DNA from: Shigella phage JK32
Direction: 5' to 3' (one strand)
Length of the DNA stretch: 64,000 nt
Sequence record: MK962753.1
Shown here: one piece after another, positions 3,196 to 33,742 of the stretch
Position numbering within the stretch: position 1 is the stretch's first letter
Layout: each line of letters starts with the position of its first letter
The notes under the pieces: model-generated
The model's database searches: none
Seen by the model: the letters and a program-made list of their open reading frames with translations, nothing else
What the model was told of the DNA's origin: nothing
Position numbers and translations under genes: made by a program

Positions 3196-3224
3196 AGTAT
3201 AGGGGATCTCGCGATCCCCGTCAA
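3196..3224 (-). promoter_or_regulatory. Sigma70-type early promoter (TTGACG-17-TATACT) with stem-loop in spacer
   Basis: Reverse strand reads TTGACG gggatcgcgagatcccc TATACT; followed by conserved leader and ATG at 3153. Confidence 0.55.
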
Positions 3225-3228
3225 GCAT

Positions 3229-3762
3229 TTATTTTAAATTTTTTCGAATGTATTCAGACCATTCTCTGCCAGTAAGTTCGGTCCCATTCTGGAAACTGAA
3301 ATATTCATACGGCATCGAGTCAAGATAAAACAGGATCATACATCGCGCCATATAATACCAATCACGATTAAAGTAAACTACGTTATCGCCAGTACCATCA
3401 ACCCCTTTATCATAACCATCGCGGGTACGGGCGACCCATTGAATAGTATCATTTTTCTCACGGATAGTAACAGGTTCCCAATATCCAGCACAGCCAGCAT
3501 GACCACACGAACAAGTAAGGAAATATTGACCTTTTGCTTTGTTGTCATCCCATTCACGATGAATTGGTTCGATTTCGTGAAACAGTGCCAAGCAATCATG
3601 ATTATGCAACACTGGCTTACCATCAATCAATGCATGGAATGTATGCAAACGACCAGTAGACAAATAGCTATCCTCACGCTCAACCAGTTCAATAGCAATC
3701 TTTTTAGCTCGTTCTTTGTGTCGTTGTGCTTTACGCTTACGGTTTAATGATTTCATACTCAC
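3229..3762 (-). CDS. Hypothetical Cys-rich protein between nrdD and nrdG
   Basis: ORF track; CSCGHAGCAGY cysteine cluster. Confidence 0.6.
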   Translation of the reverse strand: MSMKSLNRKRKAQRHKERAKKIAIELVEREDSYLSTGRLHTFHALIDGKPVLHNHDCLALFHEIEPIHREWDDNKAKGQYFLTCSCGHAGCAGYWEPVTIREKNDTIQWVARTRDGYDKGVDGTGDNVVYFNRDWYYMARCMILFYLDSMPYEYFSFQNGTELTGREWSEYIRKNLK

Positions 3763-3775
3763 CTCACAATTTCAA

Positions 3776-4309
3776 TTAGCAACGATACTGCACATTATCA
3801 AAATGAGAATGTACATTACCGATGGTATAGATCAAAAATCCCTCGTCCGGCGATTGCACCACAAATTGAGTAGGTCCAACTGCAACAACCTTAAACACAC
3901 GATCACTAACTTTGTGTTTAATCTCTGCGCCAACTTCCAAAGGAACAAATTTTACTGTGGAAAGTTCAATACCAAAACCATCATCATGCAAACGAATAGG
4001 TTTATTGTTATCGATCATTTTCACATATTCAAGATCATACAATTCGCGGGTGCTATCAGTGTAAACCAATACTGTATTGTTATGATAACGAATTACATAC
4101 ATGTTATGGTCATCATCAAGTACACATAAATTACGAATCGGTGTACCCTCTCCTTTTTTACTCCAACAGATATTAACCACATTACCTTGAATTGTGAATG
4201 GCTTAGACGTTCCGAAAGTCGCTAAAGTGCTTTCTCTCATCTGGACGGTTACGCGAGTCCCAATAGTCAGCGGCTTAAAATCATACCCATTAGTCAGTAC
4301 ACAAAACAT
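3776..4309 (-). CDS. Hypothetical protein
   Basis: ORF track 177 aa; preceded by own promoter. Confidence 0.6.
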   Translation of the reverse strand: MFCVLTNGYDFKPLTIGTRVTVQMRESTLATFGTSKPFTIQGNVVNICWSKKGEGTPIRNLCVLDDDHNMYVIRYHNNTVLVYTDSTRELYDLEYVKMIDNNKPIRLHDDGFGIELSTVKFVPLEVGAEIKHKVSDRVFKVVAVGPTQFVVQSPDEGFLIYTIGNVHSHFDNVQYRC

Positions 4310-4341
4310 AATGTTATCCTCTCTTTGTTTTCGATGTGAGC

Positions 4342-4369
4342 ATTATACATTAGCTAATCAGGTTGTCAA
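4342..4369 (-). promoter_or_regulatory. Sigma70-type early promoter (TTGACA-16-TATAAT)
   Basis: Reverse strand TTGACA acctgattagctaatg TATAAT upstream of ORF 3776-4309. Confidence 0.6.
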
Positions 4370-4371
4370 CA

Positions 4372-4407
4372 CCTAAAAACGAAAAAGCCGACCCTTTCGG
4401 ATCGGCT
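4372..4407 (-). terminator. Rho-independent terminator after nrdD
   Basis: Reverse strand stem agccgatccgaaagggtcggct followed by T-run. Confidence 0.6.
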
Positions 4408-4412
4408 AAAAA

Positions 4413-6275
4413 TTACATGTGCTTAACGCGGTTTACCATCTCAGAGTGTTTCCCGTGGTTAAATGGACGCAGATCAACAGACCCAAGATATCCACTAACG
4501 CGACGGATAACATTCATCTTTTCCAGATTGTCATTGCCGCAATCAGGACAAACAAAACCAAACTCGGTCGCTCTCATTTCCTTAGTAGATCCGCATACAT
4601 GACATACATCAGAAGGAGTATTAACACCGAAGTAGTGCAATTTATCCATTGCATAATCTACTACGGTTTCAAGCCCTTTCAGGTTGTTTTTCATGTCTGG
4701 GAACTCAACATAAGAGATCATACCACCGGACGCCAGCCAGTGATAATCTTTCTCAAAGTCGATTTTCTCAAACGGTGTGACTTTCCGGTCTACGTCAAGG
4801 TGGAATGAGTTGGTGTACCAGTCTTTATCGGTAGCACCCTTAACAATACCAAATTGCTCTCGGTCCAGTCGATTAAATCGATAGCAAAGGCTTTCGGCTG
4901 GCGTACCGTAAAGACTAAACCCAAGTCCGGTTTCGTCCTTCCATTTTTCAGTATAATGACGCAAGATCTTAAGAATATGTTTACCGTATCGCTGCGCTTC
5001 TTCCGAATCAAACGGATGAACACCAAACAGGACGCTCAATACTTCATGTAAACCAATATATCCAAGCGAGATACTAGCGCGACCATCTTTCAGCACTTCC
5101 AAAATTTCATCGTTTTGATGGATACGGAAAAATGCACCTTCTGTATACAGCACCGGAGCAACATTGGCTTTAGCCCCTTTTAAAGCGTCTACGCGACTCA
5201 TCAGCGCATCAAAGCAAATAGGCATACGATTAGCCAGCTCTTGTTCGAATAGCTCAATTCTGCGCATTACAGACGCTTTACCAGCACGACGCGCGGCAAT
5301 AAGAGCAATACGCGGAAGATTCAGAGTCACAACACCTAAGTTATTACGTCCGTCTAATACTTCTTCGCCTTTCTCATTATGCCACACACCCAGGAAGCTA
5401 CGACAACCCATCGGGCTAACCGGAACACTAGATCCAGTGATACTACGGTTATTCTTCGCAGAGATATAATCAGGGTAAAGACGCTTACTAGAACATTCCA
5501 ATGCAAGTTGCTTAATGTCGTAGTTCGGATCTTCCGGTTTAAGGTTTAATCCTTCTTCTAAGAACATCACCAGCTTAGGAAACACCGGAGTGATACCATC
5601 TTTACCTAAACCTTTAGTTCGAACGTTCAGGATCGCTTTCTGAATCAGTTTTTCTTCCCAGCTAGTACCCATACCAAAGGTTAAAGTCACAAAAGGCGTT
5701 TGACCATTGGTAGAGAACAAAGTGTTGATCTCATATTCCAACGCCTGATATCCGTCTAACGTTTCTTTTTCTGTCTTCTCTTGTGCATAGAGAGTATCAG
5801 CTTTGATTCCGTAGGTTTCGGCATCAGCAAGGTGTTTATGATATGTTTTCTCAACGTATGGCGCTAAAACCTGATCAATGTTTGCTATGGTAGTTCCGCC
5901 ATATTGATGACTTGCCACCTGTGCGATAATTTGAGCGGTTACAGCACATGCAACACCGATTGATTTCGGACTTTCGATTTGTGCACTACCCAATTTAAAA
6001 CCATTCTCTAACATGTCTTTGAGATTAACAAGACAGCAGTTAGTAAACGGCATAGCGGGTGCATAATCCATATCATGATAATGAATATCACCGTCTACAT
6101 GCGCTTTATAGATGTGCTCAGGTAACACGGTTTTAGCAATCTGTTTAGACACAGCGCCAGCAATCAGATCTCGACGTGTCGGGAATGTTCGCGCGTCTTT
6201 GTTCGCGTTCTCTTTGCTTACTTCGTTTTCTTTACCCGTTGCGATCTCTGTAATGTCTTTGATTAGTTTTTCCAT
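4413..6275 (-). CDS. nrdD: Anaerobic ribonucleoside-triphosphate reductase (glycyl radical enzyme), uninterrupted
   Basis: 620 aa; C-terminal Zn-ribbon CPDCG and glycyl radical motif RVSGYLG; close match to recalled T4 NrdD. Confidence 0.95.
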   Translation of the reverse strand: MEKLIKDITEIATGKENEVSKENANKDARTFPTRRDLIAGAVSKQIAKTVLPEHIYKAHVDGDIHYHDMDYAPAMPFTNCCLVNLKDMLENGFKLGSAQIESPKSIGVACAVTAQIIAQVASHQYGGTTIANIDQVLAPYVEKTYHKHLADAETYGIKADTLYAQEKTEKETLDGYQALEYEINTLFSTNGQTPFVTLTFGMGTSWEEKLIQKAILNVRTKGLGKDGITPVFPKLVMFLEEGLNLKPEDPNYDIKQLALECSSKRLYPDYISAKNNRSITGSSVPVSPMGCRSFLGVWHNEKGEEVLDGRNNLGVVTLNLPRIALIAARRAGKASVMRRIELFEQELANRMPICFDALMSRVDALKGAKANVAPVLYTEGAFFRIHQNDEILEVLKDGRASISLGYIGLHEVLSVLFGVHPFDSEEAQRYGKHILKILRHYTEKWKDETGLGFSLYGTPAESLCYRFNRLDREQFGIVKGATDKDWYTNSFHLDVDRKVTPFEKIDFEKDYHWLASGGMISYVEFPDMKNNLKGLETVVDYAMDKLHYFGVNTPSDVCHVCGSTKEMRATEFGFVCPDCGNDNLEKMNVIRRVSGYLGSVDLRPFNHGKHSEMVNRVKHM

Positions 6276-6287
6276 TGTATCACCTAT

Positions 6288-6310
6288 GAAAAAGCGGGAT
6301 TTCTCCCGCT
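6288..6310 (-). terminator. Rho-independent terminator
   Basis: Reverse strand agcgggagaaatcccgct followed by TTTTT. Confidence 0.5.
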
Positions 6311-6319
6311 CGTTGATAG

Positions 6320-6814
6320 TTATTTTACCAGTTCTGCTAATTCTTTTTCCGCCGCTTCCAGTTCAGCTTTCAGTTGTTTAATCTCTTGTCGCTTCTTATT
6401 AGCGGCTTCCTGCTTACTATTTCGGATAACCTGATCTAGATATGAATCCCACTCCTGAATATTTTTGATAATGTAACCGTCAACGTTCAGAACTTTAATA
6501 TTAAGAACTTCTTCCAGCTTACTTAAAGAACGTTGTGTTTCGGGGAAGAAATAGTCATATTCACCTCGGTCAAACCAGTAGCGTATGCCAGCTTTATCTA
6601 AACGACGATGCAATTCATCAAAATCTCTACCATCTTCGACGATGAGTTTGTCTACATCGCCATTACAGTTAACAGAGACTTTGAATCTAATATTATCAAC
6701 CCCACCAAAAACATCAATAAGGATAGTTCCTATCGTGTTATCCGCGCTTCCAGTATCCATAAAAGATTCTAGTTTTTCTTGATTAGTAACGTACCAAACA
6801 TCTTGTTTCCACAT
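6320..6814 (-). CDS. Hypothetical protein with coiled-coil tail, grouped with the GKTYxWK family by architecture
   Basis: ORF track; C-terminal KQLKAELEAAEKELAELVK. Confidence 0.55.
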   Translation of the reverse strand: MWKQDVWYVTNQEKLESFMDTGSADNTIGTILIDVFGGVDNIRFKVSVNCNGDVDKLIVEDGRDFDELHRRLDKAGIRYWFDRGEYDYFFPETQRSLSKLEEVLNIKVLNVDGYIIKNIQEWDSYLDQVIRNSKQEAANKKRQEIKQLKAELEAAEKELAELVK

Positions 6815-6844
6815 AATATAATCCTCTCGTTGTTAAGTGGGAGT

Positions 6845-6872
6845 ATTATAGCATACTCCCTTCGCATGTCAA
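6845..6872 (-). promoter_or_regulatory. Sigma70-type early promoter (TTGACA-16-TATAAT)
   Basis: Reverse strand TTGACA tgcgaagggagtatgc TATAAT; hairpin gggagta/tactccc overlaps -10. Confidence 0.6.
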
Positions 6873-8047
6873 GCACTAACTTTTTTCTTTACTGCTTTCA
6901 CCTTCTGGCGAATTGCTCGAATCTCTTCGATCTCTTTTTCAGTCTCTTTAACAATTTCTTTGCGATTCTGAATATCTGTATCGAGATTATCATCAAGTTT
7001 AGGCAGCATGTCAATCAAGAACTTTTTAAAGTCTTTCAGGTTTCTGATAACAGCACCTTCACCCATTACCGCCACCCCTACACCATCCGGCAGATCGCCA
7101 AACAGTTTAACCAGTTCAGACAGATGATCATGATCTTCTAGTGCTTCTTCCGGTTCAGATGGCAGTTCAACAAAGTTATAACGTTCATCATTGCTGATGA
7201 GGTGATACCAGCAAAGCCCGAATGATTTCGGTGTATATTCTACACCATCAATTTCAACCGAGTCAACACTTCCATAATCATCTACTTTAGTTACCTTAAA
7301 TCCTTGTCCCAGCTTTTGAACAATTTCAACAACATGACTTGATACAGTTTCAGCGGTAAACCAATATGGCAAATTATGCTGATTTGGCTTGTAGCGTTCA
7401 CCTACTTTAAATCTCTGACCAGCCGCTTGCATAGCATGAAATTGTTGTTTCGTGATTTCCGCGAAGTATTCAAATTCGCTACCATCAAACACACAAGCCC
7501 ATTGATCACAAAAACGATCTGCCTTGACGGTTTCACCTTTCGCGGTGATCATGGTAGCTGATCCGTGCAATTCTTCTTCAACTAAAAAGCCATATTCGAC
7601 AAAATCGACAAGTTTCATGGCTTCTTTGTGCTCTGGATCATGCTCTCCCCAGAATCGCTTAAATTCTTGCAAACCTTCCGGGGTAAACGAATAACATTTA
7701 CCTTTTTCAAAGTAAGTCGGCATTGCATCCTCTTTCTTGTTCATCGCTTCGTATGCCTCTTTTGAGATGCGTTTAAAGTATTTGCGCTCATTGTGCATAA
7801 TCATAGTAGACCAATAATAAACGATATCCTCAGCGGAATAAACTACATCTCCAGCTTCAATAGTAATAACATGACCGTGGTCATCTTTTTCTAATACTTT
7901 AAAGCCCTTTTCTACGATTTCAGCAACCCGAATATGACCACGGCGCGAAGCATCGGTCAGAATAATTGAATAGCGAGAAAAGTCTAGAAACTCATCTTTA
8001 CCGCCTTCACGGAATGCATAGTAATGACCTTCAAAGAATTTAGCCAT
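6869..8047 (-). CDS. Hypothetical protein with three tandem repeat domains and a coiled-coil tail
   Basis: Repeats FEGHYYAFREGG, FEKGKCYSFTPEG, FKVGERYKPNQ; KYFKRISKEAYEAM motif shared with 8103-8687. Confidence 0.6.
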   Translation of the reverse strand: MAKFFEGHYYAFREGGKDEFLDFSRYSIILTDASRRGHIRVAEIVEKGFKVLEKDDHGHVITIEAGDVVYSAEDIVYYWSTMIMHNERKYFKRISKEAYEAMNKKEDAMPTYFEKGKCYSFTPEGLQEFKRFWGEHDPEHKEAMKLVDFVEYGFLVEEELHGSATMITAKGETVKADRFCDQWACVFDGSEFEYFAEITKQQFHAMQAAGQRFKVGERYKPNQHNLPYWFTAETVSSHVVEIVQKLGQGFKVTKVDDYGSVDSVEIDGVEYTPKSFGLCWYHLISNDERYNFVELPSEPEEALEDHDHLSELVKLFGDLPDGVGVAVMGEGAVIRNLKDFKKFLIDMLPKLDDNLDTDIQNRKEIVKETEKEIEEIRAIRQKVKAVKKKVSA

Positions 8048-8077
8048 AATATAATCCTCTCGTTGTTAAGTGGGAGT

Positions 8078-8106
8078 ATCTTACTACTCCCGTTTCATCA
8101 TGTCAA
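8078..8106 (-). promoter_or_regulatory. Sigma70-type early promoter (TTGACA-17-TAAGAT)
   Basis: Reverse strand TTGACA tgatgaaacgggagtag TAAGAT; hairpin gggagta/tactccc. Confidence 0.5.
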
Positions 8107-8687
8107 GCGTTAAATGACTTTTGGATCTCTTTCAGTTCAGCTACTTTATCGGCGCTGAATTTAGCGTAGGTATCATGTCGAATAATTTCACTTTCAAGAA
8201 AGGTTTCCAGACGAGATCTATTTTCAATAAGGAACTCTTTCAGGTCTTCCGCGTTCTTGATAAAGATTTTATTGTCGGTAATGTCATCTTCAATCGCAAA
8301 GGAGATAGAGCGAACTTTACCAAACAAGTTAATCAGATCTTCCAGAGATTCTTCTTTCTTAACTGGTTTCATTTCTTCAAACTGCTTTTTAGTGATTCGT
8401 TTAAAGTATTTGCGCTCGCTTGCATCAATCATGATTGACGCGCCCTCATAATCATGAGTTTCTACCAAATACACTTTACCCATAACATTAACCGTCAGAA
8501 CTTTAAAGCCCTTGTGAAGCACACCATACAGGAACTTGTTATGTTGTGGATAGCGTTTAACAAATTCCTCTGCGGACTCAGCATTACGGAAAGTGTAATA
8601 ACGACCTCGTTCAAAAACAGCATCATTTGAAGACTTAGCCGGATACAATTTATACGTTTTCTGTACCATAATATAATCCTCTATCAT
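8103..8687 (-). CDS. Hypothetical protein, repeat family
   Basis: KYFKRITKKQFEEM motif; overlaps upstream ORF by 4 nt. Confidence 0.6.
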   Translation of the reverse strand: MIEDYIMVQKTYKLYPAKSSNDAVFERGRYYTFRNAESAEEFVKRYPQHNKFLYGVLHKGFKVLTVNVMGKVYLVETHDYEGASIMIDASERKYFKRITKKQFEEMKPVKKEESLEDLINLFGKVRSISFAIEDDITDNKIFIKNAEDLKEFLIENRSRLETFLESEIIRHDTYAKFSADKVAELKEIQKSFNA

Positions 8688-8956: not shown

Positions 8957-8987
8957 TGTTGATTCTCCTTCTTGATTAGATGGGAGT

Positions 8988-9016
8988 ATTTTATTACTCC
9001 CATTTCTTATTGTCAA
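8988..9016 (-). promoter_or_regulatory. Sigma70-type early promoter (TTGACA-17-TAAAAT)
   Basis: Reverse strand TTGACA ataagaaatgggagtaa TAAAAT. Confidence 0.5.
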
Positions 9017-9019
9017 CTA

Positions 9020-9493
9020 CTATCTTAATCTTTGTATAAATTGTTTCTTATACTTCTTCGTGATCTCTTCTCTTGTATCCGCGTCGCAGTAATCGAAACC
9101 TTCTGCGTCCATAATAGCAACCATCTCCGCGCGTGTCAAGCGTGAAAATCGTTTTACTTTATCAACAGCATATTGAGGATGTAAATGATTGTTGGTGTAG
9201 TCTCCTTTGATGTAATTAACATAGTTTGTAGCCCAAACAACGAAATCAGCACCTAAAGCACCAACACCAAACCGTTTAAAGTCTCCAGTCAACGATCCTT
9301 CTAGGCGGTTGCAACACGAATGAAGCAATCCCCTTACGCGGCCTTGCCCTTTCCCATCTAGATCGTGGTCGTGGTCAAGATGGTTTTTGCTCATATCCTC
9401 AAAAAGTGGCAATTGACAAAGGGGGCAATTGCCCCCCTGTTTTTCGAATAGTTCTTGTTTGTACTCTTTAGCACTCTTAGCAGTCAGTAACAT
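9020..9493 (-). CDS. 49: Recombination endonuclease VII (Holliday junction resolvase)
   Basis: MLLTAKSAKEYKQ...NHLDHDHDLDG...VRGLLHSCCN matches recalled T4 endo VII; start taken at MLLT after a GGAGGG Shine-Dalgarno. Confidence 0.85.
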   Translation of the reverse strand: MLLTAKSAKEYKQELFEKQGGNCPLCQLPLFEDMSKNHLDHDHDLDGKGQGRVRGLLHSCCNRLEGSLTGDFKRFGVGALGADFVVWATNYVNYIKGDYTNNHLHPQYAVDKVKRFSRLTRAEMVAIMDAEGFDYCDADTREEITKKYKKQFIQRLR

Positions 9494-9799: not shown

Positions 9800-9807
9800 G
9801 TTATACC

Positions 9808-11869: not shown

Positions 11870-12214
11870 TTATTTCACGTTAACGCCGTCATCAATCCAG
11901 CCGACGCTATTTGGTTTAACAGTTTTACCATAGGATGCATACTTAATCAAGCATGGTTTAACATCATTATCAAATCTTCCTAAACGTACTCCAAAATCAG
12001 GAATATCCATGTATGCGGCTTTATATCCCCATGTGCCATATTCAGAATCAATCTCAACCGGACGGCCTTTAAAAGCATACACTACACCGTGACGGTCAAC
12101 GATAACATAGCAATAGCCAGCCGGAAGATACACAGTTTCGCCGTAAACTTTAACTGGAGTAGCAGAAGAGATAAACATAATATAATCCTCACATCGTTCA
12201 TTTGATGCGGTCAT
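11870..12214 (-). CDS. Hypothetical protein
   Basis: ORF track; own promoter upstream. Confidence 0.5.
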   Translation of the reverse strand: MTASNERCEDYIMFISSATPVKVYGETVYLPAGYCYVIVDRHGVVYAFKGRPVEIDSEYGTWGYKAAYMDIPDFGVRLGRFDNDVKPCLIKYASYGKTVKPNSVGWIDDGVNVK

Positions 12215-12241
12215 TATATGATAACCGCATTTTCATGTCAA
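12213..12241 (-). promoter_or_regulatory. Sigma70-type early promoter (TTGACA-17-TATAAT)
   Basis: Reverse strand TTGACA tgaaaatgcggttatca TATAAT. Confidence 0.6.
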
Positions 12242-12247
12242 CAGTTT

Positions 12248-12622
12248 TTAAAAATCTTCTTCCGGTTTATATCGACCGTCATCGACTGGTTTTGGACTGA
12301 ATCCGGTATGTGTTCGCGGTTTAGCTTCCGGTTTGCCAGCAATCATCAAACCAAAACATTTCAATCCTTTATAGCACATAACAATATTAACCACTGTCCA
12401 CGTTATAGGCCATACGATTGCAGCAATACAAAATGCTCCTGTATCGACCTCTTTGGTGTCCTTGTCGAATCTGGCGTACAAGCAGAATACTAGATACGAG
12501 ATCATTGCACCCGTAGGCCAGATATAAAGCACATTAACAATATCTTGTGTTGTCACGTTATCCTCCTTACATGTCTTGCAGTGCATAAAAGCATTTTTCT
12601 TCGTAGTCATAGAAAATGTCAA
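12248..12622 (-). CDS. Hypothetical membrane protein; start uncertain (possibly GTG at 12556)
   Basis: Hydrophobic segments; track ORF overlaps upstream ORF by 56 nt. Confidence 0.4.
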   Translation of the reverse strand: MTFSMTTKKNAFMHCKTCKEDNVTTQDIVNVLYIWPTGAMISYLVFCLYARFDKDTKEVDTGAFCIAAIVWPITWTVVNIVMCYKGLKCFGLMIAGKPEAKPRTHTGFSPKPVDDGRYKPEEDF

Positions 12623-12845
12623 AGTATGCTTTTTCTACATACTCGCCATTGATCCAAGCGGCAGTAACAATCAGAGTGGTCCAGTTAGATCCGCTCTCAA
12701 CGGTAAAGGTTTTAATACCCAGCTTCGCTGCTAAGTCGAACGCAAACCGGACGCAACCACGGCAGGAAGTGATATTGGAAGTTTTGATTTTAAAGCCACC
12801 GCGAGTTTTAGAAATTTCTACTTTAGCGAAAGACAGGTTGCTCAT
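12567..12845 (-). CDS. Hypothetical protein
   Basis: ORF track; ATG directly after GGAGAATCAAA leader. Confidence 0.55.
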   Translation of the reverse strand: MSNLSFAKVEISKTRGGFKIKTSNITSCRGCVRFAFDLAAKLGIKTFTVESGSNWTTLIVTAAWINGEYVEKAYFDIFYDYEEKCFYALQDM

Positions 12846-12887
12846 TTTGATTCTCCTTAAGAAAGTGTGTTTCGTTTTGATGTGTGT

Positions 12888-12916
12888 AGTATAGGGGATC
12901 GGTGATCCCCTGTCAA
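12888..12916 (-). promoter_or_regulatory. Sigma70-type early promoter (TTGACA-17-TATACT) with hairpin in spacer
   Basis: Reverse strand TTGACA ggggatcaccgatcccc TATACT. Confidence 0.55.
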
Positions 12917-12925
12917 CAACTTTTT

Positions 12926-13255
12926 TTATGAGTTTAGTGAATTAACTACTACATCAAAATGATGTACAGAGTACACCTTATTAAACACATACTCATCGTG
13001 TTTAGGAATAGCCCCTAATCGCTCTATTTCGCTCGCTAACACGATAAACCGTTTATCCGGTGCATTTACCTTATATGCTTCAACAACGCACGGGAAACGC
13101 GTTTCAGAGAGTTCTGGATAGTTTTCTGAATCCATCAGGACAATGAATACCCTGTTACATTGATTGTAGAATCCTGTTTTTGATTTCATCAAGTTTTCTT
13201 CTCTGTACAATTCGTGCAATCTTCCTTTCATGATTTCGTTGGTTCTTGTCTTCAC
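12926..13255 (-). CDS. Hypothetical protein; start uncertain
   Basis: ORF track; overlaps 13155-13496 in another frame. Confidence 0.4.
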   Translation of the reverse strand: MKTRTNEIMKGRLHELYREENLMKSKTGFYNQCNRVFIVLMDSENYPELSETRFPCVVEAYKVNAPDKRFIVLASEIERLGAIPKHDEYVFNKVYSVHHFDVVVNSLNS

Positions 13256-14673: not shown

Positions 14674-14935
14674 TACATGCTTTTAATGCATCAGTCGCGG
14701 TGTCATAGCGAGTATTATCATAGCACCAGTAACCATCGGTCAACTGATAAATCAATCCATCCCTTTTAGCTTCGATGAAAGATAACTCTTTGAAAGTTTC
14801 TACTTTCTTTGCTGATACTCCACGGTCACGGCGCTTATAGAGTTTAGCTAAAATGCGTTCAGCTTGTTCCTCTTTATCACCAGACAGATCCCAAATAATG
14901 TTGCGGATATGTTTGATTAATTGTTCAGTGGTCAT
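14645..14935 (-). CDS. Hypothetical protein
   Basis: ORF track; ATG after conserved leader. Confidence 0.5.
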   Translation of the reverse strand: MTTEQLIKHIRNIIWDLSGDKEEQAERILAKLYKRRDRGVSAKKVETFKELSFIEAKRDGLIYQLTDGYWCYDNTRYDTATDALKACNDHLRKTTV

Positions 14936-14964
14936 CTTTGATTCTCCTTAGTTGGTATGTGTGC

Positions 14965-14992
14965 ATTATAGCACTATGATTTTCATTGTCAA
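14965..14992 (-). promoter_or_regulatory. Sigma70-type early promoter (TTGACA-16-TATAAT)
   Basis: Reverse strand TTGACA atgaaaatcatagtgc TATAAT. Confidence 0.6.
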
Positions 14993-15002
14993 CAACTAAA
15001 AA

Positions 15003-15030
15003 CAAAAAAGGCTACCCCGAAGGATAGCCC
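15003..15030 (-). terminator. Rho-independent terminator after Gly-rich gene
   Basis: Hairpin ggctaccccgaaggatagcc with flanking A/T runs. Confidence 0.55.
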
Positions 15031-15036
15031 ATAAAA

Positions 15037-15870: not shown

Positions 15871-16092
15871 TTAGATGACCTCTGCTTCACCATTCAGGAA
15901 GAAAGACCATGTTTTGTTAGGATAGCGAAGCGCCCATGATTCAGCAGTTTTAACACCAGCTTCGAACAATTGACGGCTGGTTACTTTAGCCATACCATCT
16001 TCGATGGCAACGTTTTCAATAATCATCGGGTACTTAGCGCCACGCATGAAACCGAAGCCAGCGGAAGATTTGATAATTTTAACAGTTGCCAT
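15871..16092 (-). CDS. Hypothetical protein
   Basis: ORF track 73 aa; ATG after conserved leader. Confidence 0.5.
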   Translation of the reverse strand: MATVKIIKSSAGFGFMRGAKYPMIIENVAIEDGMAKVTSRQLFEAGVKTAESWALRYPNKTWSFFLNGEAEVI

Positions 16093-16133
16093 TTTTGATT
16101 CTCCTAGAAAGTGTATCTCGTTTCGATGGGTGT

Positions 16134-16162
16134 ATTATGCAATAACACCGGATCGCTGTCAA
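16134..16162 (-). promoter_or_regulatory. Sigma70-type early promoter (TTGACA-17-CATAAT)
   Basis: Reverse strand TTGACA gcgatccggtgttattg CATAAT plus conserved leader. Confidence 0.6.
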
Positions 16163-16180
16163 CACTTTCTAAGAAAAATT

Positions 16181-17147: not shown

Positions 17148-17346
17148 TCTTCACGGTCTCCATAATTGTTTTGTAAGCCAGTTTAAGATGATCACCGAAA
17201 AACTTTGCAGTGTTACCCTTCGGATCGCGGAGCATGGTTTCTACGATCTCATCGGCAGTAACAATTTCTCCTTTCTTTGCTGCATGTCCTACCATATACT
17301 TCAAAGTTTCTTCGGAAGCAAGTGCTGCGGCTACTGGATTAATCAT
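17137..17346 (-). CDS. Hypothetical protein
   Basis: ORF track; ATG after conserved leader. Confidence 0.5.
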   Translation of the reverse strand: MINPVAAALASEETLKYMVGHAAKKGEIVTADEIVETMLRDPKGNTAKFFGDHLKLAYKTIMETVKNAK

Positions 17347-17375
17347 TTTGATTCTCCTTTGTTGTCGATGTGTGC

Positions 17376-17404
17376 ATTATGCTATACCCTATTCCGGTTG
17401 TCAA
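17376..17404 (-). promoter_or_regulatory. Sigma70-type early promoter (TTGACA-17-CATAAT)
   Basis: Reverse strand TTGACA accggaatagggtatag CATAAT. Confidence 0.6.
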
Positions 17405-17416
17405 CACCTAAAAACG

Positions 17417-17444
17417 AAAAAAGCCACCCTTTCGGATGGCTTTT
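17417..17444 (-). terminator. Rho-independent terminator
   Basis: Hairpin agccaccctttcggatggct flanked by A/T runs. Confidence 0.55.
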
Positions 17445-17450
17445 GATTAA

Positions 17451-23066: not shown

Positions 23067-23100
23067 TAATTTCTCCTGTTTGGTTTAACTTTCTGATTCC

Positions 23101-23129
23101 ATAATATAGCCCTATCACCAGAAAGTCAA
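23101..23129 (-). promoter_or_regulatory. Sigma70-type promoter (TTGACT-17-TATTAT)
   Basis: Reverse strand TTGACT ttctggtgatagggcta TATTAT upstream of SLT gene. Confidence 0.45.
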
Positions 23130-23151
23130 GCATTAATTTAACCAATTTCCA

Positions 23152-23575: not shown

Positions 23576-23914
23576 TTATTCTCCTTTCTTAAACAAATTG
23601 CGAAGCCAGTATACAAACGGGATTTCTTTAAACTTGAACTTGTCAATAGTTAATTCTTTAGTAGCAAGATGAATACCATAAGCATCATGTGTCACGATAT
23701 GCCATTTTCTATAGTCCAAATGTGAACAACCGTCTGAATCTAGGTTAATAATAGTTTCTCGCTCACTAGGATTGTTTTTCCACAATTTTGTAATCGGATC
23801 ACACATAATTCGACCTAGCGTACCATGAATAATCTCACAACGGTAAAGTTTTCCGGCAGTGATATAGGCACACCCGTCATAGTCGGTATAAACAAACACT
23901 TCTTTAACACTCAT
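23576..23914 (-). CDS. Hypothetical protein, member of a tandem triplet paralogue family
   Basis: ITAGKLYRCE...DSDGCSHLDYRKWHIV pattern shared with next two ORFs. Confidence 0.5.
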   Translation of the reverse strand: MSVKEVFVYTDYDGCAYITAGKLYRCEIIHGTLGRIMCDPITKLWKNNPSERETIINLDSDGCSHLDYRKWHIVTHDAYGIHLATKELTIDKFKFKEIPFVYWLRNLFKKGE

Positions 23915-23946
23915 TTTTAATACTCCTTTGTTGTGTCGATGGGGGT

Positions 23947-23975
23947 ATATTACTACCCCCGATCATGGGTGTCAA
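23947..23975 (-). promoter_or_regulatory. Sigma70-type early promoter (TTGACA-17-TAATAT)
   Basis: Reverse strand TTGACA cccatgatcgggggtag TAATAT; hairpin gggggta/taccccc. Confidence 0.5.
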
Positions 23976-24236
23976 CTACTTTTTCAAGAATTTTTTAATT
24001 GCGTTCCAAAGACCTTTATTCTCAGGCTGTTTTGGTTCTTCGATCAGTGTCCACGGACGGTCGTCAAGATATGCACAGCTTTTCAGAGAAATAAAAAGTT
24101 TGTATCCTTTATCATCTTTGATGTAACCGTAGGTAGACATTCTTTCATCTGGCGTAAACTTATACAGTTTATTTGGGGTGATGTAAGATCTACTACTATA
24201 AGGTGTCATTACATATTTCATGGTACTAACTCCCAT
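23976..24236 (-). CDS. Hypothetical protein, triplet paralogue
   Basis: ITPNKLYKFTP...GYIKDDKGYKLFISL. Confidence 0.5.
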   Translation of the reverse strand: MGVSTMKYVMTPYSSRSYITPNKLYKFTPDERMSTYGYIKDDKGYKLFISLKSCAYLDDRPWTLIEEPKQPENKGLWNAIKKFLKK

Positions 24237-28122: not shown

Positions 28123-28123
28123 A

Positions 28124-29786: not shown

Positions 29787-29807
29787 AATATAATCCTCAC
29801 ATTAAAT

Positions 29808-30385: not shown

Positions 30386-30393
30386 AATATACC

Positions 30394-30720
30394 TTAGAAA
30401 GAAACAGTTTTCAAGAAATCCAGATTTTTAGTACCGAAAACAGAAAAGTAGTGTTTTCCTTTTTCGGTTTTAGAGAAAGCGATTGTCTTCTCTACATGGT
30501 GACGGAAGCCAGACAGACGATCACCCAAGTCAAGGCGGCAAGCGTAAGTAGTGCCGTTTTCGAAAGTAACCTCGATTTGAGTTTTGTCATATTCGCTTTC
30601 ATAGGCTTTTGCTGCCGCGTCCTTTGCTTTACGCTCGAAGTCTTCGAAGTGGAATACTTCGTTTGCGTTAGCGAATACAGAAGATTCAGAGAAGATAACT
30701 TTAACAGATACTGGTTTCAT
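30394..30720 (-). CDS. Hypothetical protein
   Basis: ORF track; ATG after conserved leader. Confidence 0.55.
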   Translation of the reverse strand: MKPVSVKVIFSESSVFANANEVFHFEDFERKAKDAAAKAYESEYDKTQIEVTFENGTTYACRLDLGDRLSGFRHHVEKTIAFSKTEKGKHYFSVFGTKNLDFLKTVSF

Positions 30721-30762
30721 TTTGATACTCCTTAGTAGTTCGTGTTTCGTTTCGATGGGTGT

Positions 30763-30791
30763 ATTATGCTATACACCCTCTCGCGTGTCAA
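30763..30791 (-). promoter_or_regulatory. Sigma70-type early promoter (TTGACA-17-CATAAT)
   Basis: Reverse strand TTGACA cgcgagagggtgtatag CATAAT. Confidence 0.6.
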
Positions 30792-30799
30792 CAACTTTT

Positions 30800-30988
30800 T
30801 TAGTCTTTTTTCATAATTTCTAGAGCAGTTTCTACCGCACCTTTCCAACCTTCCCACATAATGGACATAGTAATGAAGTTAAAGCACCCGCAGAAATCAA
30901 CCTTTTTAGAGATAAACCATTCTACAAACGCTTCGCTCATACCATGCTCTTTAGCGGATTCGCGTAATTGTTCAATTTGGTCTTCCAT
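30800..30988 (-). CDS. Hypothetical protein
   Basis: ORF track. Confidence 0.45.
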   Translation of the reverse strand: MEDQIEQLRESAKEHGMSEAFVEWFISKKVDFCGCFNFITMSIMWEGWKGAVETALEIMKKD

Positions 30989-30997
30989 AGTATCACC

Positions 30998-31249
30998 TCA
31001 ACATTTAACGTTATTCAAACGATTTTGAAAGTACATATAGCAAGCATAATTTTGCTTTGGTTGTACCGTGTCAGATAGACACGCTTTTACAGCCTCGCGG
31101 TCCGATGGATCTACACCCTCAGCCTTAAGTAATGCTAAAATCTGGTTATAGCGTACTCTTAGTTGTACTAATGGTTTCTCTCCCATATTACACCCCTTAC
31201 AGTTGATCAGCGATGTATGCGGTGCAAGCGCGGAGTTTTGCCATAGCAC
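30998..31249 (-). CDS. Hypothetical protein
   Basis: ORF track. Confidence 0.4.
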   Translation of the reverse strand: MLWQNSALAPHTSLINCKGCNMGEKPLVQLRVRYNQILALLKAEGVDPSDREAVKACLSDTVQPKQNYACYMYFQNRLNNVKC

Positions 31250-31424
31250 CGCCTTTCATGTCACTAGCACCGACAATGTTCATGATCTCTAAGCGATCCG
31301 CTGGATTTAAGCGGGTAGCCCAGATCTGATTAGCCAGTTCCAGTTTACCCATTTGAGGTTCAATTTCTAACATTTCACGCTCAAAGTCGATGATTTCTTT
31401 TGCTGCTTCTTTAAAGTTGATCAT
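31197..31424 (-). CDS. Hypothetical protein
   Basis: ORF track; ATG after conserved leader. Confidence 0.5.
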   Translation of the reverse strand: MINFKEAAKEIIDFEREMLEIEPQMGKLELANQIWATRLNPADRLEIMNIVGASDMKGGAMAKLRACTAYIADQL

Positions 31425-31453
31425 TTTGATTCTCCCGTTTCGTTGATGGTTGT

Positions 31454-31482
31454 ATTGTAGGGGAGTTATACTCCCCTGTCAA
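31454..31482 (-). promoter_or_regulatory. Sigma70-type early promoter (TTGACA-17-TACAAT) with hairpin in spacer
   Basis: Reverse strand TTGACA ggggagtataactcccc TACAAT. Confidence 0.5.
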
Positions 31483-31491
31483 CACTTTTTA

Positions 31492-31677
31492 TCAGAAATA
31501 TGCGATATAGTTTGCCAGTCCTACAGAGTCATCATTCGGCATTGCTTTTACTGCTAGTTCAAACCCTGCTTCAACTTTCTGTTTAGCGGATTCTTCGTTA
31601 TAACCCCAGATTACCAGAATAGCTACTACGTTTTCTTTGCTTACTGCTTTCAGTGCTTTAGTGATGCGACGTGCCAT
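31492..31677 (-). CDS. Hypothetical protein
   Basis: ORF track; ATG after conserved leader. Confidence 0.5.
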   Translation of the reverse strand: MARRITKALKAVSKENVVAILVIWGYNEESAKQKVEAGFELAVKAMPNDDSVGLANYIAYF

Positions 31678-31723
31678 AATTTGATTCTCCTAGTTAGAAA
31701 GTGTGTTTCGTTTCGATGGGGGT

Positions 31724-31752
31724 ATTATGCTATAGGCGTGATCTGGTGTCAA
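31724..31752 (-). promoter_or_regulatory. Sigma70-type early promoter (TTGACA-17-CATAAT)
   Basis: Reverse strand TTGACA ccagatcacgcctatag CATAAT. Confidence 0.6.
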
Positions 31753-31780
31753 CAACTTTTTTAAAAAAATTTAGGCAATA

Positions 31781-31806
31781 AAAAAAGCCACTCCGAAGAG
31801 TGGCTT
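31781..31806 (-). terminator. Rho-independent terminator
   Basis: Hairpin agccactccgaagagtggct flanked by A7 and T-rich runs. Confidence 0.6.
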
Positions 31807-31954
31807 ATAGGGAAGGTAGCGAATCTTCCTTGTCTCCAACCTGCTAGCGGCCTAGCAAGTGAATGCTTTAGCGTACCGGGTCACCCCATACGCTGTAATA
31901 AATGCGGCTAGGTGACGTCCAAATCATTCTAACCGCGCTGTCTTTAGTTCACTA
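31807..31954 (-). ncRNA. Candidate structured non-coding RNA (about 150 nt, no ORF)
   Basis: Coding-free GC-richer island with nested inverted repeats (gtcacc...ggtgac; gctagcggcctagc), ending in a strong terminator. Confidence 0.25.
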
Positions 31955-32173
31955 TTATTTATATCGCTTTCTCTCGCGACGTTTTTGATCTTCTTCCTTG
32001 ATAGAGTCAAATGCATCAAAAAGACACATGAGACTGATAATGAACATAACCGTATTTTCTACGATATCCCACGTCTTCGCATCAGTACAGATCCCCCAAA
32101 CGGTAAGAAATGCAAATAGTGCAGAAGAGATCACAAGCATGATACTTGCTAAGATATAAAAAGTCATTTTCAT
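31955..32173 (-). CDS. Small membrane protein
   Basis: Hydrophobic helices. Confidence 0.45.
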   Translation of the reverse strand: MKMTFYILASIMLVISSALFAFLTVWGICTDAKTWDIVENTVMFIISLMCLFDAFDSIKEEDQKRRERKRYK

Positions 32174-32364
32174 GGTTTTACCTCAATTTTTCGATATTCA
32201 TCACACATCCACGCAGTAAGCAAGAATCCCAGCACATAAGCAACAAAATACGTTAATGCTTCTTCTGGTTTCGTGCTATGTATCATCAGTAAACCAGCGA
32301 GAAAGGTCTTAACAATTACATTTAAAATAATTAGCCACGCAAATAATTTCATCGTTTGCCCCAT
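32170..32364 (-). CDS. Small membrane protein
   Basis: Hydrophobic helices; 4-nt overlap coupling. Confidence 0.45.
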   Translation of the reverse strand: MGQTMKLFAWLIILNVIVKTFLAGLLMIHSTKPEEALTYFVAYVLGFLLTAWMCDEYRKIEVKP

Positions 32365-32588
32365 TTCGGTCGAGCCTTTTCAAACTTATACATTCCGTAA
32401 CAATCTCGAATCATCCACGTAACAAGAGCACCAGTCAACACAGACAATACACAGAAGAAGTAAAACGGTCCGGTTGCATTATCAACATGAGCAAGCCATG
32501 TAAAGAAAACACATGCAAGGAACGTGAAGAACATCATAAAGCACAAGAAAGCAAAATATTTTATACTACTCATAGCGCCACCATACAA
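32349..32588 (-). CDS. Small membrane protein
   Basis: Hydrophobic helices. Confidence 0.45.
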   Translation of the reverse strand: MYGGAMSSIKYFAFLCFMMFFTFLACVFFTWLAHVDNATGPFYFFCVLSVLTGALVTWMIRDCYGMYKFEKARPKWGKR

Positions 32589-32676
32589 CAGATCACAAGA
32601 AACCCCAACGCAATAAGAATTTCATCAAATTTAGTGAACTCCGGTCCACCTATCAACATCATTCGTTCCTGTTCAT

Positions 32677-32874
32677 TCATAGATCACAGAGCCATCTGAA
32701 AGCACCACATAAAGCGAGCAGAATACTAGGTATAAACGAGACTAAAACAAGACTACAAAAATCATCTAAGGTAACGCCGGAATAGCTACCTACTGTAACA
32801 ACACCGATTATCAGACACAGAAAGAAAACAAATGCAACCAGAAACAAAGTATTGCTAAACAGTTTAGTGATCAT
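32677..32874 (-). CDS. Small membrane protein (start refined to MITKLF)
   Basis: Track ORF 32677-32919 overlaps its neighbour; internal ATG at 32874 removes the overlap. Confidence 0.4.
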   Translation of the reverse strand: MITKLFSNTLFLVAFVFFLCLIIGVVTVGSYSGVTLDDFCSLVLVSFIPSILLALCGAFRWLCDL

Positions 32875-33067
32875 TAGACACCCCACGACGATCAATTTCA
32901 AAAACTTTTTTATCATCAACGAAGCATGTCACAACTGCCTCGTTGACTTCCGCAAATTGTTGTGTTACCCACTTAAGGTCAGAGCGAAACAATGTTCTAT
33001 TAATAACAAATGTTTTACCGCTCTTATCCTTACCCATAAATTTTGCTTTAACCATATCCAATTCCAT
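32864..33067 (-). CDS. Hypothetical protein
   Basis: ORF track. Confidence 0.45.
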   Translation of the reverse strand: MELDMVKAKFMGKDKSGKTFVINRTLFRSDLKWVTQQFAEVNEAVVTCFVDDKKVFEIDRRGVSNDH

Positions 33068-33068
33068 A

Positions 33069-33235
33069 TTATCACCTTATTTGCTAATCGCTAAACCCAA
33101 TCCGAAGAGAGCACCCGATGCTACAGTATACCCGAAAGTTTCAAAGGCAGTAAAGATATCTAAGCCGCCAGCTAACAGAGTTGCAGTAAACAGAGTACCA
33201 GCTACGAAAATAAAAGTTTTACCGATAAATTTCAT
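33069..33235 (-). CDS. Small membrane protein (about 52 aa), absent from ORF track
   Basis: ATG directly after GGAGAATCAAA leader; translation MKFIGKTFIFVAGTLFTATLLAGG. Confidence 0.35.
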
Positions 33236-33266
33236 TTTGATTCTCCTTTCGTTTGTTTGTGGGGGT

Positions 33267-33295
33267 ATCTTACTACCCCCGTTTCATGTTGTCAA
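33267..33295 (-). promoter_or_regulatory. Sigma70-type early promoter (TTGACA-17-TAAGAT)
   Basis: Reverse strand TTGACA acatgaaacgggggtag TAAGAT; hairpin gggggta/taccccc. Confidence 0.5.
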
Positions 33296-33301
33296 CTATT
33301 T

Positions 33302-33680
33302 TTAAGAATATTTTACTTCGTCTACAATGTCTTTCATGACATTGATTTCCATTCCGGTCAGAACACGTTGGAACATGTGCTGCACATACGCTTTCAGGTA
33401 TTCATTTGATGGCTTACTATCGAAAGTCTTTTTAGTGTAGTAGTCATCACCGAAAGCTACTGTAATTACATTTTCGTCGTCGTTCCAAGCGATATAAGCA
33501 AATTTGCCGTTATCCCAGAAGCGAGCACTAATTGCTACTTTTGTTGAATCGAATCCTACTTCGCTGTGAGATTCAAGAACTACTTGTGTGCCAGTTTCTT
33601 TATGAATGTAGTAGCGGGATACTAAGTCAAAGTTACGGGTGTAGTGACATTCGAATTTATCTTTAAACATCATCATTTTG
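33302..33680 (-). CDS. Hypothetical protein (start at MMMFKDKF after conserved leader)
   Basis: Track ORF 33302-33745 trimmed to ATG following GGAGAATCAAA. Confidence 0.5.
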
Positions 33681-33713
33681 ATTCTCCTAAGTGTGTTTCG
33701 TTTCGATATGTGC

Positions 33714-33742
33714 ATTATGCTATAGTCGTTTATGGTTGTCAA
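33714..33742 (-). promoter_or_regulatory. Sigma70-type early promoter (TTGACA-17-CATAAT)
   Basis: Reverse strand TTGACA accataaacgactatag CATAAT. Confidence 0.6.

Follow-up and report, generated by a model that had tools for sequence, protein, structure and literature searches.

Genomic context of the early region

A stretch of 64,000 nucleotides (nt) from Shigella phage JK32 (sequence record MK962753.1), called the window below, was analysed for a dispersed family of short cassettes that lie mainly on its minus strand, each combining a sigma-70-type early promoter, a hairpin and a translational leader. By their sequence, these cassettes are identified as the promoter-early stem-loops (PeSLs) already described in RB49-like phages. 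Homology to the Phi1 annotation shows that the minus-strand block in which they lie carries nrdH, nrdG, nrdD, frd.2, 49, nrdC, dam, 38 and rI and, further, tk, vs, regB, dmd, 57B/A and genes 1, 3, 2 and 4, with many hypothetical open reading frames (ORFs) interspersed among the named genes. The GC skew of the window is negative to ~38 kb and positive beyond. No Rfam family was found in the window at the gathering threshold, and no tRNA was found in it by ARAGORN.

Megablast with window positions 28000-36000 matched 58 public phage records, all of them RB49-like coliphages of the genus Krischvirus and including RB49, Phi1, JSE, GEC-3S and G5211. In 54 of the 58 records, a single aligned stretch spanned 80% or more of the query, with 92-97% identity, and the same record set was retrieved with positions 1-25000. 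The window source is accordingly classed, on similarity, as a Krischvirus, i.e., an RB49/phi1-like T4-type coliphage. Comparisons were made with twelve relatives (Phi1, RB49, GEC-3S, SSG23, JSE, G5211, LF73P4, W115, kaaroe, Brandy, PTE-Eco09 and phiS), from each of which the homologous 32-42 kb was taken.

Census and promoter anatomy of the cassettes

Sixteen obvious copies of the cassette were aligned, a profile hidden Markov model (HMM) was built from them, and the window was searched with nhmmer. The search returned 16 minus-strand copies between 3153 and 33759 (expect value, E, 6e-17 to 3.6e-10) and a single plus-strand copy at 46908-46976 (E 4.5e-9); the next match in the window had an E of ~1. 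Repeat finding gave several overlapping families of 33-80 nt at the cassette positions. The motif GGAGAATCAA occurs 10 times, every time inside a cassette, against 0.14 expected occurrences, and GTTGACA occurs 24 times against 9.75 expected. In a promoter scan, by far the most of the best sigma-70 consensus matches on the early strand, those with at least 11 of 12 positions, were cassettes. All 17 profile-defined units match 10-12 of the 12 consensus positions and have a spacer of 16-17 nt.

Each unit is ordered as an A-rich tract, GTTGACA, the 16-17 nt spacer, a TATAAT-like -10, a C-rich discriminator, the leader, GGAG and ATG, and the alignment consensus reads a.a.tttt...a.aAgttGTTGACA. The 3' end of a unit is formed by GGAGAATCAAAATG or the variant GAGAGGAT...ATG, which comprise the Shine-Dalgarno sequence and the start codon of the downstream ORF. 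GGAG is present in the ribosome-binding site of 10 cassettes, and four units carry GAGAGGAT/GTGAGGAT in place of GGAGAAT. All copies are intergenic and oriented with the genes, and the 16 in-range units all belong to the early (minus) strand of the block from nrdH to gene 1, where hypothetical ORFs are numerous.

The sequence-only reading of this DNA had proposed seventeen or more near-identical minus-strand units between 3196 and 33742. The family and its strand are borne out by the 16 profile copies, far beyond chance, and the two limits are set by the first cassette (its -10) and the last (its -35). The figure of seventeen is reasonable once one further site, at 23129, is added to the 16 profile copies. 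This seventeenth promoter-plus-stem site (23081..23131, minus strand) has TTGACT-17-TATTAT, a 10/12 promoter match, and a 13-bp stem that pairs the -35 region with the +1 region (folding free energy, dG, -13.8 kcal/mol; z -2.7). It is without the family leader and gave no match to the cassette HMM; the GEC-3S record has a promoter annotation at the orthologous site. The term near-identical does not hold, as pairwise identity between units averages 56% and ranges from 37 to 83%. The conserved leader that had been described is present in its long form, CGAAACGAAACACAC with at most two mismatches, in only five units; the others have shorter leaders, among them the four with the GAGAGGAT/GTGAGGAT type.

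An exact scan of IMG/VR with the 18-nt leader found 23 loci. Clear cassettes were present in three of them, all Krischvirus, and two others gave weak profile matches. This exact-leader scan, which is a narrow test, gave no sign of the cassette family outside Krischvirus.

Each cassette carries one hairpin

A segment of 51 nt per unit, from the -35 to about +14, was folded, and units are designated here by the coordinate of the -35. Ten units (33295, 31482, 30791, 23975, 12916, 12241, 9016, 8106, 6872 and 3224) contain a strong hairpin embedded in the promoter, with dG of -13 to -17 kcal/mol and z of -2.4 to -4.6. Unit 16162 contains a weak one (dG -8.6). The remaining six, 33742, 31752, 17404, 14992, 4369 and the plus-strand unit 46923, have no embedded hairpin, and these same six are exactly the units with a canonical GC stem and T-run terminator directly upstream of the -35. 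At the level of sites the split is thus 0 with both, 10 with an embedded hairpin only, 6 with a terminator only and 1 weak (Fisher p = 6e-4). Extension to the window plus the 12 relatives gave 211 instances and 161 unique variants (orthologues and paralogues), of which none had both, 103 had an embedded hairpin, 47 had a terminator, as scored by an explicit stem and T-run search, and 11 had neither. The weak 16162 site accounts for 9 of the 11 variants with neither, and the rule of at most one hairpin per cassette was without exception.

The terminator-class units are similar in layout. Unit 33742 (33675..33785) has terminator 33780-33760 followed by a T-run, TTGACA, a 17-nt spacer, CATAAT, CGAAACGAAACACAC and GGAGAATCAAAATG (E 5.7e-16), and its promoter segment has no hairpin (dG -2.3, z +0.2). 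In unit 31752 (31677..31810; E 4.2e-16), terminator 31806-31785 is followed by an A/T tract, the -35, CATAAT and the long leader, and the promoter segment again lacks a hairpin (dG -0.2). Unit 17404 (17345..17450; E 6e-17) has terminator 17444-17419 and CATAAT. Unit 14992 (14935..15035; E 4.7e-12) has terminator 15030-15009, a 16-nt spacer and TGcTATAAT, and unit 4369 (4310..4410; E 1.5e-12) has terminator 4407-4386, located after nrdD, and TATAAT. The lone plus-strand member (46875..46976; E 4.5e-9), which lies outside 3196-33742, has TTGACA at 46923, a 16-nt spacer, TATAAT and CGGAGGATAAATTATG; its terminator is located just before 46923 (fold dG -15.6) and no hairpin is embedded. All six upstream hairpins have the GC stem and immediately following U-run that define an intrinsic terminator.

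The 11 embedded hairpins fall into two arrangements. Three occupy the spacer, the position in which the sequence-only reading had often placed them; eight straddle the -10 instead, and five in-range units have the upstream terminator in place of either. The spacer-filling stems are of the types GGGGATC-NNN-GATCCCC and GGGGAG...CTCCCC. They comprise GGGGAGT-ATA-ACTCCCC filling the 17-nt spacer of unit 31482 (31422..31500; -10 TACAAT; E 9.4e-13; dG -15.2, z -3.0), GGGGATC-ACC-GATCCCC in unit 12916 (12843..12929; TATACT; E 7.2e-14; dG -13.0, z -3.7) and GGGGATC-GCGA-GATCCCC in unit 3224 (3153..3241; -35 TTGACG, TATACT ending at 3196; E 3.6e-10; dG -14.7, z -2.4).

The stems straddling the -10 are of the types GGGGGTA/TACCCCC, GGGAGTA/TACTCCC, GGGTGTAT/ATACACCC and GCGGTTAT/ATAACCGC, and their 3' arm consists of the last bases of the -10 and the C-rich discriminator. 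GGGGGTA/TACCCCC is found in unit 33295 (33233..33312; -10 TAAGAT; E 2.4e-13; dG -14.0, z -3.45) and in unit 23975 (23914..23993; TAATAT; E 6.4e-16; dG -16.8, z -3.0). Unit 30791 (30719..30803; CATAAT; E 2.5e-15; dG -16.6, z -4.5) has GGGTGTAT/ATACACCC, and unit 12241 (12179..12257; TATAAT; E 7.6e-11; dG -14.9, z -3.5), with a GTGAGGAT-type Shine-Dalgarno sequence, has GCGGTTAT/ATGACCGC. Stems TGGGAGTA/TACTCCCA, GGGAGTA/TACTCCC and GGGAGTAT/ATACTCCC are present in units 9016 (8958..9030; TAAAAT; E 1.6e-12; dG -12.9, z -4.2), 8106 (8047..8116; TAAGAT; E 3.6e-11; dG -13.4, z -3.6) and 6872 (6814..6881; TATAAT; E 2.1e-11; dG -14.8, z -4.6), respectively. The weak hairpin of unit 16162 (16092..16180; E 5.5e-16) also straddles the -10 and has the stem GGTGT/ACACC with a z of -0.5. 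Across the embedded hairpins, the position of the stem varies from +5 to +17 relative to the -35.

None of the 11 embedded hairpins fits the intrinsic-terminator definition: in no case does the transcribed strand show 5 T in 8, and all are absent from the minus-strand terminator lists. Spacer-class stems are followed by TATACT/TACAAT, so that the -10 itself (UAUACU/UAUAAU) is their sole U-rich tail. An alternative reading of the stems as antisense terminators was set aside, the plus-strand T-run being more than 10 nt away from the spacer-class stems; two stems of the -10 class were flagged as weak plus-strand terminator-like sites.

The two forms also differ in the room that they leave between genes. 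In the hairpin class, the upstream ORF stops either 0-18 nt short of the -35 or within it: 6 nt ahead of it at 33295, with a TAG abutting it at 23975, and with a TGA within TTGACA at 8106 (upstream ORF 8103..8687) and at 6872. In the in-range terminator class, the gap is 43-46 nt in four of five units and 203 nt at 31752.

A 181-nt non-coding stretch (31780-31960, minus strand) lies between ORF 31955-32173 and cassette 31752. It is predicted to fold strongly (dG -65.7, z -5.3), ends in an intrinsic terminator and is 96.7-100% identical in 12 of 12 relatives, and the changes cluster in a single hairpin loop. At the gathering threshold it matched no Rfam family, the best sub-threshold match scoring 25 bits against a cut-off of 100. 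The stretch may represent a small RNA of the phage or a structured 3' untranslated region.

To evaluate conservation of the embedded stems, 28 unique hairpins of the -10-straddling class were aligned without gaps around the centre of the loop, and their stem pairs were counted. Pairing is ~99% at pairs 1-7, with exchanges on both sides of the stem (AT/TA, GC/TA, AT/GC/TA and GC/CG). Over a 9-pair span, 89% of positions are paired, and displacing the partner column by 1-2 positions lowers this to 38-56%. What is conserved in the stems is pairing and not sequence, and the changes are compensatory. The loop is far less constrained. At site 12916 (window 12888-12916), the loop or inner stem reads ACC, GCC, GGT, CACGT, CGCGT or CACAT among relatives that are ~95% identical, and ACC and GGT are a reverse-complement flip of each other. 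This pattern suggests that the loop may be inverted, or frequently exchanged, within the palindrome.

Correspondence of the cassettes to PeSLs

PeSLs were named in phi1 and RB49 by Arbiol, Comeau, Kutateladze, Adamia and Krisch in 2010 (PMC2839356) as units in which an AT-rich tract precedes a sigma-70 promoter with a spacer of 16-18 nt and, after it, a Shine-Dalgarno sequence and an ATG; a polyG/polyC stem-loop takes one of five positions, which include the spacer, an overlap with the -10 or the -35, and the AT-rich region upstream. Totals of 52 in phi1 and 51 in RB49 were reported, mostly in hyperplastic regions and upstream of ORFans (PMC2839356). The JK32 cassettes show the sigma-70 promoter, the AT-rich tract, the stem-loop of variable position, the Shine-Dalgarno sequence with ATG, the hyperplastic location and the homology. 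With respect to the last, phi1 and RB49 have the same cassettes at the same sites, with cores 84-100% identical at the 14 anchored sites described below. Equivalent positions in the GenBank record of GEC-3S already carry promoter, -35, -10 and terminator features. The sequence-only reading had likened the units to dispersed promoter-stem-loop elements proposed as recombination points in T4-type genomes, and this likeness is upheld: sigma-70-type early promoter, stem-loop and leader units of exactly this kind are the PeSLs for which the proposal was made (PMC2839356) and later extended to other T4-like phages by Comeau et al. 2014 (PMC4122927).

The published functional data can be related to individual cassettes. 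PeSL206/205 gave ~13,000 Miller units (PMC2839356); its core in the Phi1 record is TTGACAGGGGATCACCGATCCCCTATACTACACACAT, 37 nt of which are identical to window cassette 12916. The stem-loop of PeSL211/210 lowered lacZ expression to an extent comparable to rrnB T1 and is in this sense terminator-like (PMC2839356). The Phi1 site upstream of ORF210, which is presumed to be the counterpart of PeSL211/210, has the spacer-class hairpin GGGGATC-GGT-GATCCCC. Mini-circles arising from recombination between neighbouring PeSLs were detected by polymerase chain reaction (PCR) in both phi1 and RB49 (PMC2839356). The RB49 early-promoter consensus is consistent with 5'-end mapping of early transcripts, and RB49-type phages have no motA gene and no middle promoters were found in them (Nolan et al., PMC1524935).

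Orthology of cassettes and position of breakpoints

At 14 sites that could be anchored by matching the downstream ORF, the cassette core was found at the same place in nearly every relative. Most orthologous cores are 84-100% identical, and several of the lower values arise where an indel of 1 nt puts the gapless comparison out of register. Occupation of the same orthologous sites in the relatives argues that, on the timescale of these 12 genomes, the cassettes behave as stable regulatory elements.

Breakpoints were derived from an overlap-tolerant chain of BLAST alignments against window 1-38500. Of the 60 unique breakpoints, seven are no more than 25 nt away from a cassette, compared with 5.9% expected from the share of sequence (binomial p = 0.06). 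Among breakpoints at which gene content changes, 4 of 27 are at cassettes; when only those at gene junctions are considered, 4 of 17 fall on cassette junctions, and 16 of the 79 junctions bear a cassette (p = 0.46). Cassettes are therefore not absent from synteny breakpoints, and the proposal of the sequence-only reading that they mark and probably mediate the accessory-gene mosaicism is supported in part by individual cases; as a general statement about mediation, it is weakly supported.

Individual crossovers inside cassettes were identified in phiS, G5211/LF73P4 and W115. In phiS, the promoter half of cassette 16162 is joined within GGAGAATCAA to the ORF downstream of cassette 14992; gp38 and the next ORF are deleted by this leader-to-leader crossover (14948/16069), which has a 37-nt junction overlap. 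G5211 and LF73P4 have another cassette, with a spacer hairpin, at site 14992 and lack gp38. Site 14992 is the crossover point for gp38 deletion or replacement in all three phages. W115 has a chimeric cassette at 12916. A two-ORF module at 3243-4294 is present as a divergent allele between cassette 3224, its left border (break 3243-3246), and cassette 4369, its right border (breaks 4290-4296). A divergent patch at 6484-6792, comprising the 5' third of the downstream ORF, abuts cassette 6872.

An indel of a 712-amino-acid (aa) ORF begins at the terminator of cassette 17404 (break 17449). This ORF (17451-19589, minus strand) matches no Pfam family, its sole match, to Ig_3, being below threshold. 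Only the window, SSG23 and Brandy have the ORF; most other relatives have ~224 nt of non-coding DNA in its place, and Phi1 keeps a 3' remnant.

A further difference concerns the LF73P4 assembly (OZ035795.1), in which window 1-12926 is inverted at 96116-83229, 12842-35945 corresponds to 37605-56851 and 35837-56464 corresponds to 141390-162000. At one junction the overlap with cassette 12916 (12842-12926) is 85 nt; a genuine large rearrangement through the cassette would explain this arrangement, as would an assembly error at the repeat. On the upstream side of this junction, LF73P4 packs 11 cassettes into ~7.5 kb, and the ORFs among them are unrelated to those of the window. Two apparent replacements in LF73P4, at 3246-8954 and 9023-12845, were rejected as artefacts of cassette-only matches, and after whole-genome comparison one junction was counted.

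Most presence/absence differences in the region have causes other than cassettes, and homing-endonuclease genes account for more of them. Six indels, at 5396, 9810, 25151-25744, 26892-27467, 35841 and 37597, are homing-endonuclease genes. Those at 5396, 9810, 35841 and 37597 are insertions in relatives. The two in the window, at 25151-25744 and 26892-27467 (both minus strand), are free-standing HNH genes with Pfam NUMOD4 + HNH_3 and HNH_3 + AP2, respectively; both are polymorphic for presence and absence, and JSE and phiS carry a different endonuclease gene at 25151-25744. At 13674-13750, six relatives have an extra ORF of ~200 nt (Phi1 ORF074), with a junction overlap of 77 nt. Since the small ORFs beside this position are paralogues (same VOG, kaaroe annotation), the window state looks like a deletion by recombination between tandem paralogues rather than between cassettes. 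Other presence/absence differences include several internal deletions. Cassette crossovers are real but uncommon, and the cassettes are a minor contributor to gene-content variation in this region.

Two further features were noted. A perfect 266-bp tandem duplication, with two 100% identical copies, occupies 28591-29122 in a block of small ORFs. Every relative with an alignment across the segment has one copy of it, and the duplication could be a recent event or an assembly artefact. At 37612-37667, a 14-bp inverted repeat surrounds the entire 55-nt divergent intergenic region between gene 4 (minus strand) and gene 53 (plus strand). The segment folds with a dG of -26.5 and a z of -6.2, and it has a sigma-70-like TTGATA-16-TATAAT on the minus strand and the late-promoter-like TATAAATA on the plus strand.

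Proposed function and alternative explanations

It is highly probable that the cassettes are PeSLs in the full sense, i.e., early sigma-70 promoters that each combine with one hairpin and a leader and that occasionally serve as crossover points. The anatomy, hairpin statistics, covariation, orthology and breakpoints behind this explanation were computed here; promoter activity, terminator-like activity and mini-circles are taken from the literature. Each unit would be a strong host sigma-70 promoter, active right after infection, from which a short conserved leader would be transcribed, followed by a ribosome-binding site of GGAG type and the start codon of a small early gene. Transcription is predicted to start ~7 nt after the -10. 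The hairpin would sit upstream of this start, with its 3' arm ending before it, so that it should be missing from the unit's own mRNA and present only in RNA read through from upstream. It most likely terminates or attenuates the upstream transcript or caps its 3' end, and the early region would thus be divided into short, separately promoted units. Termination by the embedded hairpins, including those straddling the -10, is presumed because they are mutually exclusive with true terminators and because one spacer-class stem was terminator-like in the published assay.

The hairpin would take one of two forms, an ordinary terminator before the -35 or a hairpin folded into the promoter. In the embedded form, free spacer sequence probably pairs with the conserved -10 and discriminator, and the upstream gene may then end 0-18 nt from the -35 or inside it. 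Such an overlay would save space, and the unit could be described as a promoter with a built-in insulator hairpin. As dispersed imperfect repeats with identical blocks of 10-15 nt, the cassettes would also allow the phage recombination system to cross over occasionally, deleting or swapping the genes that they flank.

Several points weigh against this explanation. Transcription start sites and 3' ends in JK32 are predictions from the sequence. The -10-straddling hairpins do not fit the definition of an intrinsic terminator, their stems being followed by ACAAAC, ATCGAA or ATCTAA without a U-run. The sole published terminator assay concerned a spacer-class stem-loop and relied on lacZ reduction, which RNA processing could also cause (PMC2839356). 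The 161 variants underlying the one-hairpin rule are orthologues and paralogues and not independent samples, and neither breakpoint count given above (p = 0.06 and p = 0.46) departs clearly from expectation.

A less probable but live alternative is that the embedded hairpins are RNA 3'-end stabilisers or processing signals and not terminators. Read-through RNA would be cut by RNase E, by RNase III or by RegB at GGAG, and the hairpin would shield the upstream fragment from 3' exonucleases. The lack of a U-run after the -10-straddling hairpins is consistent with such a role, as are the location of the hairpins 0-40 nt from the upstream stop codon, the presence of a regB gene within the early block of the window, and the GGAG in the ribosome-binding sites of 10 cassettes, GGAG being the RegB target in T4 (PMC3014915). 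Mutual exclusion with canonical terminators suggests instead that both forms do the same job, and a spacer-class stem-loop acted like rrnB T1 in lacZ read-through (PMC2839356).

A second alternative, which is considered unlikely, is that the embedded hairpins form a non-canonical device coupling termination to initiation, and that the palindromes might also be recombination hot spots nicked by endonuclease VII. For coupling, the spacer would be tuned to the -10 and discriminator such that an arriving polymerase is stopped, or its RNA capped, on the next promoter; promoter occlusion would thereby be prevented while genes abut. For nicking, the palindromes would be extruded in single-stranded or supercoiled DNA and cut by the phage enzyme. 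The one-hairpin rule and the hypervariable, sometimes flipped loops (ACC/GGT at 12916) fit both ideas.

It is similarly improbable that the cassettes are active mobile elements, like integrons or miniature inverted-repeat transposable elements (MITEs), and the main engine of accessory-gene differences in the region. The PCR detection of mini-circles of PeSL-flanked ORFs in phi1 and RB49 (PMC2839356), the precise cassette-to-cassette deletion in phiS and the dense LF73P4 array, in which 11 cassettes and unrelated ORFs share ~7.5 kb, speak for such elements. They are offset by the occupation of all 16 sites at the same positions in relatives where these could be examined, and by the breakpoint data, in which only 4 of 27 gene-content breakpoints are at cassettes and six indels are HNH homing-endonuclease genes. 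The cassettes have no associated recombinase, and their original description did not identify one either (PMC2839356).

Very little probability is given to the palindromes being operators at which a dimeric protein of phage or host origin binds the DNA and either shuts off early promoters or targets recombination to them, the latter having been raised as a speculative suggestion for PeSLs (PMC2839356). The palindromes do overlap the -35/-10 region, where a repressor acts, and a GGGG...CCCC flavour is common to most. This explanation was rejected on the covariation of the stems, in which pairing is kept rather than a recognition sequence: compensatory double changes separate the copies (GGGGGTA, GGGAGTA, GGGTGTAT, GCGGTTAT, GGGGATC, GGGGAG). 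The stem moves between +5 and +17 from the -35, the loop is free to vary in length and sequence even within one orthologous site, and one third of the cassettes are without a promoter palindrome.

Chance sigma-70-like sequence in an AT-rich phage genome was excluded as the origin of the family, being next to impossible: a loose scan did find 78 and 88 promoter-like sites in the two halves of the window compared with ~57 in shuffles of each, so that most weak promoter matches are noise, but the profile E values run from 1e-9 to 1e-17 and are followed by a gap to ~1, GGAGAATCAA is present 10 times against 0.14 expected, and the copies all lie between genes, share the orientation of those genes and are conserved across 12 genomes.

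Comparison with known systems

T4 early promoters depend on sigma-70 and have UP-like A-tracts and an extended -10. The cassettes resemble them in their use of host sigma-70 immediately after infection, in the A-rich upstream tract and C-rich -3 to -1 positions, and in their placement before early genes and novel ORFs (PMC1524935). They differ in the -35, which is GTTTAC in T4 early promoters and TTGACA, the E. coli consensus, in the cassettes (G, not T, at -33; PMC1524935). T4 early promoters also lack the GC hairpins that the cassettes have in the spacer or -10. Just ahead of the -35, six cassettes have the make-up of a Rho-independent terminator, with a GC stem, a loop of tetraloop type and a T-run; the 11 embedded hairpins differ from these in having no U-run after the stem.

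With integron gene cassettes (attC), the units share small ORFs between imperfect palindromic repeats and reported circular intermediates (PMC2839356). Unlike integrons, the region has no integrase (none is annotated in it in Phi1, JSE, GEC-3S or G5211), the repeats are promoters and not sites for a dedicated enzyme, and their positions are stable across 12 genomes.

Botstein-type linkers, the morons of lambdoid phages and the stem-loop elements of T-even internal-protein genes are likewise short conserved regulatory flanks of small accessory genes, and such flanks can act as homologous crossover points, as cassettes can. Morons are not thought to move via their own regulatory sequences, and the T-even internal-protein elements have T4-type promoters and weaker AT-rich stems in the account of Repoila et al. 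1994 given in PMC2839356. Morons and internal-protein elements are analogues of the cassettes and not homologues. Few concrete candidates exist for the linker sequences in Botstein's modular theory of phage evolution, and PeSLs belong to them, which gives weight to the question of whether they do drive gene shuffling. The original gene-shuffling claim was based on two genomes, and the present comparison covers 12 relatives of one 38-kb early region. It tempers the recombination claim and presents the cassettes foremost as stable regulatory punctuation, with one promoter and one hairpin each. For annotation, the cassettes can serve as reliable early transcription-unit boundaries in any Krischvirus genome.

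The closest known system remains the PeSLs of phi1, RB49 and JSE, from which the JK32 cassettes differ in nothing essential. The additions made here are modest and consist of the one-hairpin rule, by which embedded hairpins and terminators are mutually exclusive, the covariation of the stems and the breakpoint count over 12 genomes.

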